From an uncultured Muribaculaceae bacterium (GTDB lineage Bacteria > Bacillota_I > Bacilli_A > RF39 > UBA660), in assembly GCA_964560085.1 (NCBI GenBank), contig CAZLKF010000004.1, positions 15,554-79,553 on the forward strand: a DNA stretch of 64,000 nt, given 5' to 3'. This document shows, in pieces, positions 6,001-12,000 of this stretch (position 1 is the stretch's first letter; each line of letters begins with the position of its first letter). The position numbers are program-made.

Positions 6001-9000
6001 TAGTATTCAAAGAGTTGTGGGTGTTTTACAAGATCTAAGCGGTAAAAGTGTTGCTAAGCCAACAACCGACTATAAACCACGACCACTATATCGACCCTTT
6101 GATGACTAAAGAAATTCAATTAAAATTAAAAAACAACCCCAAATACTTGGAATACTTACGAACACATTCTTATTGGTATAAAGATCTAAATAGAAGTGCA
6201 AATAATTATAAAAGGTTTGAGAGTGAAGTAAAAGACAACTACAAATTAAGATTTCCAGATAAAGTTGAAAAAACAATTAATATGTTAGATATGCTTCAAA
6301 CTTTATTAGGAGCATTAGGTCAAAGGTGATAGATATGCAGATTATAAGTGGAAAATATAAAGGTAGAAAAATAAATGGTTTCACCATAGATGGTACAAGA
6401 CCAACAATGGATCGCGTTAAAGAATCTTTATTCGCGACTATTCAAGCAAATATCAAAGGAGCAAGAGTTCTTGATTTATTTGCTGGCAGTGGTAATCTTG
6501 GACTTGAATCATTAAGTAATGGAGCTATATATGCTTGTTTTGTTGATAAGAACAAAAAATGTATTGACACGATAAAAGAAAATGTTAATAATATACAAAT
6601 TGCTGAAAATGTTAAAATTATTAATTCTGATTATCAAAAAGCTATTAAACTTTTAAAGGAAACAGGTGAAAAATTTGATATTGTTTTTCTTGATCCACCA
6701 TATCATGAAAAATTATTAAATGCTTCAATATGCCAAATTATTAACAATAATCTCTTAAATGCAAACGCATTATTAATTGCTGAATATGAAAAAGAAATGC
6801 CAATTTGTGATTTAACATTAATAAAAGAAAAAAAATATGGTGATAAATTTATAAGAATATATAAATTAGAAAACTAATTGCCTTTTAAATACTTTTTTGT
6901 TATAATTCTAACGAGCCATATAGTCAAAATCTTTCAATATTTTTTATAAAATGTTGGACCATAAAGATTCGAGGCTGTTGGCTCAAACAAGAAATTTTAG
7001 AACACTTTTAAGTGTTCTTTTTTTTATCTTTAAAAGGAAATATGAAATGGATATTGTATATTTATGGTAAGGGAGGTGAATATATGAGATATCCATTTGT
7101 TAAACAAGAAGGAAATAAAGATTGTGCCGTTGCAACACTTTCAATGATAATTAGATATTATAAAGGATATGTGGCTCATGAACAATTAAGAGATATGTTA
7201 AATACTAATACATCAGGTACAAGTGCTTACAATATAATTAGAACAGCTGAATATTATGGTTTCGAAGCAAAAGGAATTAAAACTGAAAAATTAACTTTCC
7301 TTAATTTTCCTTGCATAGCTTATGTAACTATAAATAAACAATTAAATCATTATATTGTGATATATAAAATTGATTTTAAAAAGCAGGAAATAATTATTGG
7401 TGATCCAGCAACTAGATTGCAAAAAATGAAAATAAGCGAATTTGTAGAAATAACAAATAACGTATATATTTTGTTTAATCTTCAAAAAAAACTACCTTAC
7501 CTAGAACATAAATCTATAACAGAATTTATAATTAACTTTTTGAAAAACAATAAAAAAGTAATTATTAAAATTGCTTTGATTTCATTTTTTATAAATATAT
7601 TTGTAACTATAACGTCTTTTTCATTCAAGTTCATTGTTGAGAGTATAGATTTTACTCCAAATTTGAAATATTTGTATTTCATAATATTCTTATTAATAAC
7701 AATCTTGAAAATAACAAGTACTTATTTCCGTAACCAATTAATTATTTATTTGGATAAAAACATCGACTTTGATTTAACAAATGAATGTTATCAAAATATA
7801 ATTCACTTTCCCTATATTTATTATTGTAATCGTTCAACTGGTGAAATAATATCAAGAATTAATGACTTACAACTAACGAAGAATTTTGTAAGTAAAATTA
7901 TTGTTATGGTGTTCTCAGACTTACCACTGATTTTTATCTCTGGCATTATTATGTTTAGTTTGAGTACGAAATTGACAATTATAACAATTCTAATTTTAAT
8001 ATTGTATTTTTTAATTATTAAAATATTTAGAAATCCATTAAAGATTAAAATTCAAGAATATCAAGAATTAAGAGCAAAAAACACCTCGTTTTTAGTAGAA
8101 TCAATTTCTGCTTATGAGTGCATAAAAGGTATTAATATTGAAAAAGAAGCCATTATGAAATTTAAGAGAAATTATTATGAATATGTTAATAATATCAGTG
8201 ATTTTTCAAAAGTTTATAATTGGCAGACAACCTTAAAAGACGCAATTAATGATATGGGTTCGATTTTTATAATATTGCTTGGTTGTTTGGAAATTGGGGA
8301 GAACCTAATGACTATGGGAACTTTAATATCATTTATGTATCTTGTTTCCAATTTCTCATTACCAATTAAAGAATTGTTAGATACTAATGTTGAATTAGAA
8401 GAAAGCTTAAATTCTTTAAAAAGAGTGTTAGAACTTAATTATCAAAAAGAGAAAACAGGAATAATAGAAAAAATGCACAATGGTGATATTAATATCAGTA
8501 ACCTTAATTATGCTTATAATGATGAAGTCATTTTAAAAAACATAAATATAAGTATCAAAAAAGGTGAGAAAGTCCTCATTTTAGGACCAAGTGGTAGTGG
8601 AAAATCAACAATTTTAAAAATTATTAAAAAGTATTTAAAAATTAAAAATGAAAAAGTGATAATTAATTCAATTGATATAAATGATTACAGTAAAAATGCC
8701 ATTGATAGTAAAATTTCCTATATTGCCCAAAATGAAAGACTATTTACGGATAGTTTATTAAATAATCTCAAATTAGGGCGCAATATAGATAATCAAAAGA
8801 TATTAGAAATTTCAAAAATATGTAAGGTTGATCAAATTATAAAAGATAATTCTTTCGGGTTTAATATGTTAATTGAAGAAGATGGATTCAATTTAAGTGG
8901 TGGGGAAAGACAAAGAATTGTTCTGGCCAGAACTCTACTTAGTGATTTTGAAATATTATTAATAGATGAAGGCACAAATCAATTAGATATTAGCTTGGAA

Positions 9001-12000
9001 AGAAAAATTTTGAAAGATATTTTTAAAAAATATTATGACAAAACGATAATTGTTGTTTCACATCGAAATAATAATCTTGATTTATTTGATCATCTAATAA
9101 ATATCGAAGAAGGGGTAATAACAGAGGATGTCACACGCAACAAATAAAATAATTCTTAATTGGTTAATTACCTTAACTCTAATATTTATCATATCAATTG
9201 CTTTTATTTTCTTCTATGAATATACTGATTATATTTATACATTTGGACAAACAGAAAACGAATATGTGAATGTTTATTTAAGTGATGAAGAAATAACAAA
9301 AATTTCAAATAAATTAAAGTATGAAAATAATTTGTTGGATTTTGAAGTTATTGAAGTTTCTAATAATTATATTTTAGTATCAAATATTTTAAAAAGAAAT
9401 GTGAAACTGAAATTTCCTTACAATCAAAACAGTTATATTTTAGAACTCTATATTGATATTGGAAAGACTACGTTGTGGCAGAAAATATATAATAAATATA
9501 TGAAAGGAATGGTATATTGATTCAACTAGAAGAAACTGAATTAAAATCAATAAATGCTGGGGCTATAAAATGGGGAATCCTTGGAATTGTTGGTGGAGCC
9601 ATAACATTTATAATCGGAATTATAGATGGTATTGTCAATCCAAGTAGGTGCCATATATGATCATGAACACCGAAGAAACAAAAAAAGTAATTGCTGGTGG
9701 GTTATCAGGAACACTTATTTCGGCAATTACAAAAGTATTTAGTACAATTTTTGAATTTGGACGTGCCCTTGGATCTTCATTAAGAAGAATTCGTGATAAA
9801 AAATCATGTTCACTATAAAATGATTATATCAAACAAAAAAAGGTAATTTTTTACCTTTTTTTATTTGATAATATTGCAATTTGTTAAAAAAATTGTTATT
9901 GTAATAGCGTAATTCAGTTGTGAGGTGTAAAATGCAAATAAAAACAAGCTCATTTGCTATAACGGATGAGATAATTAATGAAGAACTGCAAGAAGAGCAT
10001 ATACCACAAGAAAGAATGTTTCTGGAAAATATAAAATTAGTTTATTCACGTGTATTACAAAGATTTTATAAATTTCCAGTTGAATTTGAAGATTTAATAT
10101 CTTATGGAATGATCGGTTTAACAAAAGCAGTTAATAGTTATGATTCTACAAAAAATATTAAATTTTGTTCATATGCTGTAAGCTGCATTGATAATGAAAT
10201 AATATCATTTTTACGCTCAAGCAGAAGAATAATTAAACCAACGGAAATAAAACGAGAAAACTTAATAAAACCAATTGCTCCAATCGAGAATATTGAAGAT
10301 GAACAAGCAAATATTTATGAAACATTTGAACAAAAAGAAGAACTAGAAGCTTTAAGATATTGCATAGCAAGTCTACCATTAAAGCATCAAAAAGTTATAA
10401 GTCTTTATTATGGTCTAGCAGATAATAGATGCTATAATCAAAGAGAGATTGCCGAACTTTTAAACATTACAACTTCTGCTGTCCAAGGAATATTATCTAG
10501 AACAATTGAGGTTTTAAGAGCAAATATGTATAGTTTAGATAAAAAAGGAATAATGCAAAGAAAGATAAGAGATAATCATTTTTATCCAAAAAAATGAAAA
10601 AAATTACCAAAAAAACGCCTTTTTTCTTAGTTTTATAAAAAAAATGTTGTAAAACTTTGGTGAGAGTGATATAATTTTGGTAGCCAAGAAGGGAGGGATT
10701 TTATATGACAAAAGTAGTTGTGAGAAATGGAAACGTTGAAAGTGCATTACGTACATTTAAGCAAAAAAACATTAAAGATGGCCTCCTAAAAGAAGTAAAG
10801 AAGCGTGAATCTTACGTGAAACCTGGCGAAAAGAGACGAAATGCTAAAAAAGAGGCAATTAAAAATAGTCGTCGTAAAGAACGCACATATAACAGAGCTG
10901 CATAAGCTCTTTAATTTTATAGAAAAGAGGGAATTCATGAAAAGTAGAATATTGGAAGATTTAAAAAATGCCATGAAGAATCAGGAAAAACAAAAATTGT
11001 CAGTTGTAAGAATGCTTAAAGGCGCTGTTCAAATGGAAGAAATATCTAAGATGCGTGAATTAACTGATGATGAAATTATAGCTATTGTTGCAAAACAAAT
11101 TAAAACACGAAAAGAGGCAAATGTTGAATTTGAAAAAGCTTCTCGCAATGATTTAGTTGAACAAAACAATGCCGAAATTGAAATACTAAGCGTTTATATG
11201 CCTGCTCAGATGGATGAAACCGAAATAAACAAGATAATTGATCAAGTCTTCGCAAGTGTTAATCCAACTGGAGTAAATGATATTGGCAAAGTTATGAAAG
11301 AATTAGCTCCACTTGTTAAAGGTAAGGCCGATATGAGTTTAGTTAATTCATTAATAAAAAATCGTTTAGAAAGTTTATAATTGACAATATTAAATTTAAA
11401 TTATATAATTTTAACATAAAAGTGATGAAGAAGAAGAGTAAAACAATTTGTTTTAAAGAAAGTTAATGGTTGATGCAAATTAACAAACAAATTATTTGAA
11501 AGAAACTTTGGAGCTTAATTGCTAATCGCATTAAAGATTTTGAGGTGTAGAAATACACAAATTAAGGTGGTACCACGAAAATTCGTCCTTATGCGGATGA
11601 ATTTTTTTTATTGGAAAGGAAGATAGAAATGACTAGAAAAGAGTATAGTGAATTATTAGTCCCTAATGTTGAACATGATGTTGCATATTATGAGGCGAAA
11701 TATCCTGAACGCAATTTAGAACCAGGCGCCATGGTAACTCGTTTTGCCCCAAGTCCAACGGGATTTGTGCATATGGGAAGCTTGTATGCCTCATTTGTTG
11801 ATTTGCAAATGGCTAAACAATCAAATGGAGTAGTGATGCTTCGTATAGAAGATACCGACCAAAAAAGAGAAGTTGAAAATGGCATTGAAGGAATTATTAA
11901 CGATTTTAACAATTTAAATATTAAATTTGATGAAGGTCCTTCATATGGTGGTAATTATGGACCTTATGTTCAAAGTGAGCGAGGGGATATTTATCGTGCT

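Follow-up and report, generated by a model that had tools for sequence, protein, structure and literature searches.

A conserved four-gene operon upstream of rpsU with features of a class IIb-like two-peptide bacteriocin system in uncultured Erysipelotrichaceae-like bacteria

The window analysed here is a stretch of 64,000 nucleotides (nt) from an uncultured bacterium (assembly GCA_964560085.1, contig CAZLKF010000004.1, positions 15,554 to 79,553 of the forward strand), deposited as Muribaculaceae and placed by the GTDB lineage in Bacilli_A, RF39, UBA660, and its rpsU gene clusters with proteins labelled at NCBI as "Erysipelotrichaceae bacterium". Positions 7033-9870 hold a predicted, tightly coupled four-gene operon on the plus strand (genes 7084-9818), which encodes a peptidase-containing ATP-binding cassette (ABC) transporter (PCAT; 687 amino acids (aa), 7084-9147), a 130-aa putative export accessory protein that resembles a miniature membrane-fusion protein (MFP; 9128-9520), and the precursors of two small peptides, pepA (47 aa, TTG start, 9517-9660) and pepB (53 aa, 9657-9818). 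In the map of open reading frames (ORFs) the start of the 130-aa gene overlaps the end of the PCAT gene by 20 nt, and the following junctions are start/stop overlaps (TTGA between the 130-aa gene and pepA, ATGA between pepA and pepB) that are kept among orthologues. Upstream the operon is bounded by a terminator-like hairpin with a T-run after rsmD (6999-7018, plus strand; 8-bp stem with 3 GC pairs, T8 tail) and downstream by a bidirectional terminator hairpin (9827-9870; 20-bp stem, 4-nt loop, T-runs on both sides). A sequence-only reading of the same DNA had given this gene content (C39 exporter, 130-aa single-transmembrane protein, two short overlapping ORFs, terminator) at the same positions, with ylbD-ylbE-rsmD upstream and rpsU-yqeY downstream, and all of it is borne out.

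The exporter contains the Pfam domains Peptidase_C39 (PF03412, E 3.7e-30), ABC_membrane (PF00664) and ABC_tran (PF00005). The oxyanion residue Gln8, the catalytic Cys14 and His89, and Asp107 of the C39 domain are kept in all eight orthologues compared (the window and seven others), and the nucleotide-binding domain carries Walker A (GPSGSGKS at residue 501) and LSGG (at 604); from these motifs the protein is judged to be a divergent but catalytically competent PCAT. It reaches 341.9 bits with TIGR01193 (bacteriocin cleavage/export ABC transporter; cut-off 523.85) and 255 bits with NF045998 (mycoplasma Mbov_0121 family; cut-off 500), staying below both. When genome contigs were scanned with the PCAT, the matches listed were only unrelated ABC proteins of 22-34% identity.

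Both small ORFs appear to be real genes, since orthologues of pepA and pepB are present in more than 12 lineages, where the adjacent overlapping arrangement is kept, and the ratio of nonsynonymous to synonymous substitution rates (dN/dS) is 0.07-0.33 among four related lineages, corresponding to purifying selection. In family alignments the leaders are 14-15 aa long, with Glu at position -8, hydrophobic residues at -4, -7 and -12, and Gly at -1. The pepA leader of the window (9517-9561, MIQLEETELKSINAG) has L-12, E-8, L-7 and I-4 and ends in AG, the predicted cleavage being followed by A, and the pepB leader (9657-9698, MIMNTEETKKVIAG, or one residue more) has M-12, E-8 and V-4 and ends in AG(G), with predicted cleavage before G. 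Leader ends are mostly AG in the clade of the window and canonical GG in other lineages; canonical orthologue leaders are LSKDEILNLKGG and LNDKEMKQIKGG, and canonical GG ends are also found in the relative L055 (MTTLSKDEILNLKGG and MKKLNDKEMKQIKGG). Published double-glycine (GG) peptide leaders end in GG, GA or GS and carry hydrophobic residues at -4, -7 and -12 (PMC7018657). The description of the leaders as double-glycine-type, made in the sequence-only reading, is only partly right: their architecture agrees with it and GG ends occur in orthologues, but the window's own leaders end in AG or AGG.

The predicted mature pepA (9562-9657, AIKWGILGIVGGAITFIIGIIDGIVNPSRCHI, 3318.0 Da) is a hydrophobic peptide of 32 aa with a grand average of hydropathy of 1.28, and the predicted mature pepB (9699-9815, GLSGTLISAITKVFSTIFEFGRALGSSLRRIRDKKSCSL, 4216.9 Da) is a cationic amphipathic peptide of about 39 aa with an isoelectric point of 10.9, a net charge of about +5 and a hydrophobic moment up to 0.64; these properties are typical of class IIb pairs. 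Conserved in pepA are E-8, G-1, G34xxxG38 (invariant or nearly so), P42 and C45, while the invariant residues of pepB are E-8, G-1, G35-R36, G39-S40, R44 and C51, including an invariant G35xxxG39 motif. A single invariant Cys lies 0-7 residues from the C-terminus of each peptide in every sampled pair (for L082, in pepA only), which suggests parallel packing of the two peptides and conceivably an interchain disulfide. Several loci depart from the plain pair: L082 has the accessory gene and pepA, without pepB, before a DUF488 gene; L066 encodes a third GG peptide of 43 aa ahead of pepA (L066:2108-2239); and in L078 an ORF of 194 aa (L078:893-1477) with a radical S-adenosylmethionine-type CxxxCxxC motif (GCNIGCEMC), which may encode a peptide-modifying enzyme, stands between pepA and pepB, whereas L077, a nearly identical locus in other respects, lacks it.

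Profile searches connect pepA with known two-peptide bacteriocins. The class IIb model TIGR03949 (lactobin A/cerein 7B) was matched by 7 of 10 pepA sequences, and its cut-off of 21.5 bits was reached by the orthologues of L077 (27.3), L061 (25.6) and L079 (21.5, exactly at the cut-off); the lactococcin G-beta/enterocin 1071B model was matched, weakly, by 8 of 10. The GG-leader model TIGR01847 (cut-off 15.7) was passed by pepA of L077 (19.6 bits) and L079 (18.1 bits) and by pepB of L055 (18.7 bits). Neither peptide of the window passes TIGR01847, and window pepA stays below the cut-offs of TIGR03949 (16.2 bits, E 6.7e-3) and of the two models for the lactococcin G/enterocin 1071 family, NF038034 (21.9 bits vs 37, E 1.5e-4) and PF11632 (18 bits vs 29.4). 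For pepB there are only weak, leader-driven matches to bacteriocin models and no family of its own, and the profile search returned only 9 clusters among 5.8 billion proteins. Recognition by bacteriocin hidden Markov models, the lack of which the earlier reading had named as contrary to its view, is thus obtained with TIGR03949 and TIGR01847 for orthologues, with the window's own peptides under the cut-offs. A literature search on two-peptide bacteriocins of Erysipelotrichaceae returned nothing on function.

The 130-aa protein belongs to an unnamed family of some size. A word-indexed search returned the protein itself only, and an exhaustive profile search collected 426 representative clusters, nearly all of 130-155 aa. 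It has no match in PHROGs, a search of PDB sequences by means of the family profile produced a chance match only (AvtR, E 0.09), and with NF045999 (MAG1140) it scored 16.1 bits against a cut-off of 35, 16 of 40 family members giving weak full-length matches to the same model (best E 4e-3). AlphaFold2 with a 40-sequence alignment produced a confident model (predicted local distance difference test 94.2, predicted template modelling score 0.78) with a transmembrane helix at residues 2-29, a beta-barrel and a C-terminal helix, and with neither a coiled-coil hairpin nor a lipoyl domain; this model superseded an earlier one from 8 sequences (local score 73), whose barrel matches (FNR, MreC, MFPs) were non-discriminating. 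Among the top Foldseek matches are MacA and Spr0693, without significance. The gene always stands between the PCAT gene, which it overlaps, and the cargo genes, and the pneumococcal rtg operon has the corresponding order of PCAT, ComB/BlpB-like accessory gene and GG peptides (PMC7018657). The MFP-type barrel fold and the gene position make it probable that this protein assists export as a miniature accessory, in which no more than the anchor and the beta-barrel of HlyD/MacA-type adaptors is left. As is expected of a HlyD-family accessory protein, the model has an N-terminal membrane anchor and an MFP beta-barrel predicted to lie outside the cytoplasm, and the gene comes straight after that of the transporter; since the protein fails the HlyD sequence test, the claim is that it works like such proteins and not that it is a member of their family.

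Some annotations of this family were rejected. The name ExbD, given by JGI to one homologue, has no support in Pfam or NCBIfam ExbD matches, and the fold differs. The 189-190-aa "fusions" of accessory protein and pepA (P0034, P0036, P0039, P0041; L062:371-940) are artefacts of code-4 gene calling, in which the TGA stop of the accessory gene is taken as Trp; L061 uses TGG for Trp, and its long ORFs have no in-frame TGA; in fusion-type lineages pepA follows the TGA in frame and seems to start at ATC or ATA. In L070 (4232-4621) and L072 (4231-4620) the 130-aa orthologue has an in-frame TGA at the codon aligned to Trp12 of the window protein, in an ORF that is otherwise intact; the two strains differ at several other codons, gene callers give only an 80-aa fragment, and the case could be one of read-through, re-initiation or a young pseudogene.

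The position of the operon is conserved far beyond the window. Clade relatives were taken as contigs carrying related rpsU genes, and presence was counted where rsmD lay on the contig. In these relatives (L051-L060, L067, L070-72, L074-76) the order is spoVA-parC-ylbD-ylbE-rsmD, then the block (PCAT and genes for about 129 aa, 46/47 aa and 54 aa), then variable genes and rpsU-yqeY-gltX. Identities of the window to them are 78-84% for gltX, 60-65% for rsmD and 53-63% for PCAT, and for the 130-aa protein 39% to L055 and 43-55% to the others. The same four genes stand upstream of rpsU in at least 9 sampled lineages, several of them with core-protein identities in the 50s to 70s % (rsmD 48-62%). 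Among distant lineages, L077 and L078 have rsmD-block-rpsU-yqeY with rsmD 48% identical to that of the window, and L080 and L081 have obg-block-rpsU-recG, so that rpsU is the linkage surviving across all these placements, and yqeY identity falls to 54% among lineages keeping the block upstream of rpsU. The module has other neighbours in L063, where it follows glmS, and in L066, where it adjoins an ATP-grasp gene. Pairwise PCAT identities follow those of gltX with r = 0.95, which indicates co-inheritance, and neither an integrase nor convincing attachment-site-like flanking direct repeats were found around the window block. The operon therefore does not look like a recent insert; the comparison points to an ancestor, shared by a broad Erysipelotrichaceae-like clade, that already had it upstream of rpsU, and to vertical inheritance from there on. 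The earlier view of an accessory module inserted between rsmD and rpsU has to be given up, since the rsmD-rpsU interval, compared in relatives as that reading had itself proposed, holds a core-like block, an outcome that it had named as contrary to its view. In one contig, L073 (1-7000), rpsU is identical to that of the L070 lineage, and the 7 kb upstream contain an ABC/FtsX pair, a helix-turn-helix gene, rubrerythrin and YkuD instead of rsmD and the PCAT block; there the module is either lost or relocated. In the index of the assembly collection the locus of one relative comes up in 732 blocks, many of them from samples of the human gut.

Taken together, the intact PCAT, the coupled peptide genes, the GG-type leaders, the GxxxG motifs and the passing of bacteriocin models by orthologues support, at the level of sequence, the two-peptide class IIb-like reading proposed at first sight, and we put the probability that the operon makes and exports such a bacteriocin at roughly 60%. 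The four genes would be co-transcribed, and the start/stop overlaps would couple translation of the pepA and pepB precursors at 1:1. Their leaders of 14-15 aa (Glu at -8, hydrophobic residues at -4, -7 and -12) would dock on the N-terminal C39 domain of the PCAT, which would cleave after (A/G)G as the cargo is exported by the transporter. The 130-aa protein, with its one-helix anchor and extracellular MFP-type barrel, would act as a stripped-down counterpart of ComB, BlpB or LcnD. Hydrophobic pepA and cationic pepB would then pair through their GxxxG motifs in the target membrane and permeabilise it, the pair being possibly fixed by a disulfide between the invariant C-terminal cysteines. The order of PCAT, accessory gene and GG peptides agrees with that of the rtg operon (PMC7018657).

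The analysis shows the content of genes and domains, the catalytic residues, the conserved leaders and GxxxG motifs, purifying selection, synteny and the modelled fold of the 130-aa protein, while the cleavage site, the accessory role, the peptide pairing and the antimicrobial activity are inferred. A number of observations weigh against this interpretation. Window pepA and pepB score under every curated bacteriocin cut-off, and the PCAT under the curated cut-offs of every named PCAT subfamily. The AG end of the window leaders is not among the GG, GA and GS ends of the published set (PMC7018657). Compared with L055, the mature peptides are about 65-66% identical and the leaders 20-29%, so that the mature part is the more conserved one. 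The assignment of the 130-aa protein as accessory draws on fold and gene position only; its family has no Pfam match, and HlyD_3 was found in only 1 of 40 members (E 0.1), the window protein itself having no HlyD match. There is no further gene between pepB and the terminator, and neither the operon nor its immediate surroundings yielded a recognisable immunity gene, while class IIb loci normally include one. In L075 (3647-4930) pepB is directly followed by genes for two zinc-ribbon membrane proteins, paralogues of 219 and 206 aa, which are candidates for immunity. For a bacteriocin locus it is unusual to find core-like deep conservation at a single place in the chromosome, and equally unusual that the mature peptide is conserved more strongly than its leader.

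Several of these observations would be expected if the peptides were not weapons but a conserved self-directed or signalling factor, for instance a secreted heterodimer linked to stationary phase or sporulation, with the PCAT and the mini-MFP as its secretion machine. This explanation, which we consider unlikely, is kept alive by the missing immunity gene, by the core-like conservation that fixes the module upstream of rpsU down to 48% identity in rsmD and 54% in yqeY, and by the stronger conservation of the mature parts over the leaders; purifying selection, a conserved promoter motif that does not look like sigma-A type, and a spore-forming organism with spoVA, ylbD and ylbE nearby go in the same direction, and the cargo of PCATs is known to include pheromones besides bacteriocins (PMC7018657). 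However, none of the loci examined has a gene for a sensor kinase, an Rgg/PlcR-type receptor or any other part of signal transduction linked to the module, a hydrophobic peptide of 32 aa together with an amphipathic one of charge +5, both with GxxxG, is a class IIb signature and not that of a pheromone, and pepA orthologues pass the class IIb model. A more specific version, in which the module is a core secretion system of the Erysipelotrichaceae-like clade and its product a covalent pepA-S-S-pepB heterodimer with a physiological role (stationary-phase- or sporulation-linked membrane or cell-cell activity) and not primarily killing, would explain the missing immunity gene, the fixed place by rpsU and the higher conservation of the mature parts, and it seems to us decidedly doubtful.

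Within the bacteriocin interpretation, the 130-aa membrane protein could be the immunity protein and not a transport accessory, being the only operon gene without an assigned role in a kind of operon that normally carries immunity, co-occurring with pepA/pepB-type cargo in every sampled locus and evolving faster than the other genes (26-39% identity). To our knowledge, class IIb immunity proteins are multi-pass or CAAX-protease-like and not single-pass beta-barrels; the modelled fold is the barrel of MFPs that partner the ABC pumps MacA and Spr0693, and the pairing of Mbov_0121 PCAT with MAG1140 in mycoplasmas points weakly to a transporter partner. The overlap of about 20 nt with the PCAT gene and the constant place between transporter and cargo also correspond to the accessory position in rtg (PMC7018657). 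An immunity role is held to be improbable. Far less probable, to the point that we hardly credit it, is a recent accessory island that spans 7084-10597 with the sigma-factor gene and displaced coaD after rsmD. The guanine-plus-cytosine (G+C) fraction of the block is indeed lower than in most flanking windows (0.21-0.25 vs 0.23-0.36), terminators stand on both sides of the four-gene operon, and distant lineages have it in other places (glmS in L063, the ATP-grasp gene in L066). But the lower G+C is shared by orthologues and typical of membrane protein genes in AT-rich genomes, the same four genes occupy the same site in all sampled clade relatives and in distant lineages, exporter divergence tracks gltX (r = 0.95), integrase and convincing direct repeats are lacking, and the sigma gene is absent from the locus of every relative.

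Regarding regulation, a motif of two boxes, AAAGGAWAT-N14-GTATNNTTAT, is conserved within 50 nt before the PCAT start in an alignment of 9 lineages whose spacers otherwise differ; the strong ribosome-binding site GGGAGGTGA comes after it (together 7033-7079, plus strand), and L063 has GAAAT as the second box. Two copies of AAAGGA-N17-GTAT are present in the window, where 0.27 would be expected. In its first box and its spacing the motif resembles the sigma-H consensus, RnAGGAwWW-N11-12-RnnGAAT, which is a lead only, and assignment to sigma-E, -F, -G or -K type was dropped for poor match. Between rsmD and this promoter the window has a specific extra stretch of about 120 nt (6878-7028), with a sigma-70-like promoter (TTGCCT-17-TGnTATAAT, 6878-6906) followed by 117 nt that fold into a long hairpin and the terminator hairpin at 6999-7018 (-34.9 kcal/mol, z = -6.35). 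The spacer between rsmD and PCAT has no Rfam match; the structured 117 nt were found only in the same species (L001, L002), with no repeat elsewhere, and may be a small RNA or a structured leader.

Downstream of the operon terminator lies a sigma-70-family gene (9932-10597, 221 aa), which is outside the conserved module. Its product passes only the generic model TIGR02937; the SigK models give 102.8 (cut-off 252) and 96.2 (cut-off 298.65) and the SigE model 91.5 (cut-off 339), and PHROGs returns generic sigma-factor families only. SigK and SigE are its best matches, as the "SigE/SigK-like" label of the sequence-only reading implied, and because the scores are far below the equivalog cut-offs it is an orthologue of neither. 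That reading had also counted the gene as a member of the block. In relatives the slot between pepB and rpsU is variable, holding rubrerythrin, Fur, YkuD-domain, phospholipase-C-like or unfamiliar genes and being empty in L077, and the sigma gene is absent from the locus of all sampled relatives, so it is not part of the conserved module; nothing found here links it to regulation of the operon. Of the terminators said to flank the larger block, those at 6999-7018 and 9827-9870 are present and none was detected after the sigma gene. A 21-nt inverted repeat (9842-9862 and 10588-10608, 90% complementary), one arm of which lies within the operon terminator, brackets the gene; it is AT-rich and may be due to chance, and it coincides with the edges of this lineage-specific gene.

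The surroundings consist of housekeeping and sporulation genes (spoVAC/AD, parC, ylbD, ylbE, rsmD, rpsB, tsf). Directly upstream of the operon are ylbD, ylbE and rsmD (6326-6877), and the sigma gene is followed by rpsU, yqeY, a Glu T-box and gltX. The T-box leader (11416-11593, 101.6 bits, above the gathering threshold) is preceded by a perfect TTGACA-17-TATAAT promoter (11381-11409). Regions 3 and 4 of a sigma factor, its C-terminal portion, are encoded at 879-1250, directly upstream of spoVAC/spoVAD (1309-2725). A sigF gene ahead of the spoVA operon would be expected to lie in this way, which indicates that the organism is a spore-former.

If active, the system would represent a two-peptide bacteriocin family not described before, from human-gut Erysipelotrichaceae that are common and mostly uncultured, and it would define a minimal PCAT accessory protein of 130-150 aa, found in more than 400 clusters and consisting of the anchor and the MFP barrel alone, from which it could be learned which part of ComB or LcnD Gram-positive cells really need. 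The family may also explain the unannotated mycoplasma gene pair Mbov_0121/MAG1140. The deep, core-like conservation of the locus, together with its lack of an immunity gene, makes one ask whether every "class IIb-like" locus encodes a weapon. In kind the system is not new, since loci of the PCAT/GG-peptide type are familiar, as are class IIb bacteriocins. New are the peptide family, whose gut Erysipelotrichaceae-like hosts are common yet for the most part uncultured, the adaptor family of 130-150 aa, modelled as "barrel-only", and the fixed position of the module upstream of rpsU without recognisable immunity.

Like the class IIb bacteriocins (lactobin A/cerein 7B, TIGR03949; lactococcin G/enterocin 1071), the system has adjacent, co-transcribed genes for peptides with GG-type leaders and with GxxxG in each, a hydrophobic and a cationic partner, a dedicated C39 ABC exporter, and pepA orthologues at the TIGR03949 cut-off. 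Unlike them, it has no immunity gene, a single operon with the transporter first and the peptides last, very short leaders (14-15 aa) that often end in AG, one invariant C-terminal Cys per peptide, and a core-like locus that is syntenic over deep divergence and not strain-variable. ComB, BlpB and LcnD are proteins of about 450 aa (vs 130 aa here), and unlike in ComAB, BlpAB, LcnCD and RtgAB the accessory protein is predicted to be anchor and barrel only, without lipoyl domain, alpha-hairpin or HlyD sequence signature. With these systems it shares the order of C39-ABC exporter, single-pass accessory gene and GG-peptide cargo, as in rtg (PMC7018657). Among the MFPs MacA, BesA, EmrA and Spr0693, MacA and Spr0693 also partner ABC transporters, whereas the 130-aa protein lacks the coiled-coil hairpin, the lipoyl and the membrane-proximal domains and, in a Gram-positive-type cell, has no outer-membrane partner. 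With the mycoplasma pair of Mbov_0121 PCAT (NF045998) and MAG1140 (NF045999), on which a literature search for Mbov_0121 returned nothing on function, both scores are far under the curated cut-offs (500 and 35 bits), yet the 255 bits of the exporter and the weak matches of 16 of 40 small-protein members suggest that in related wall-less Bacillota a PCAT is likewise paired with a small protein.

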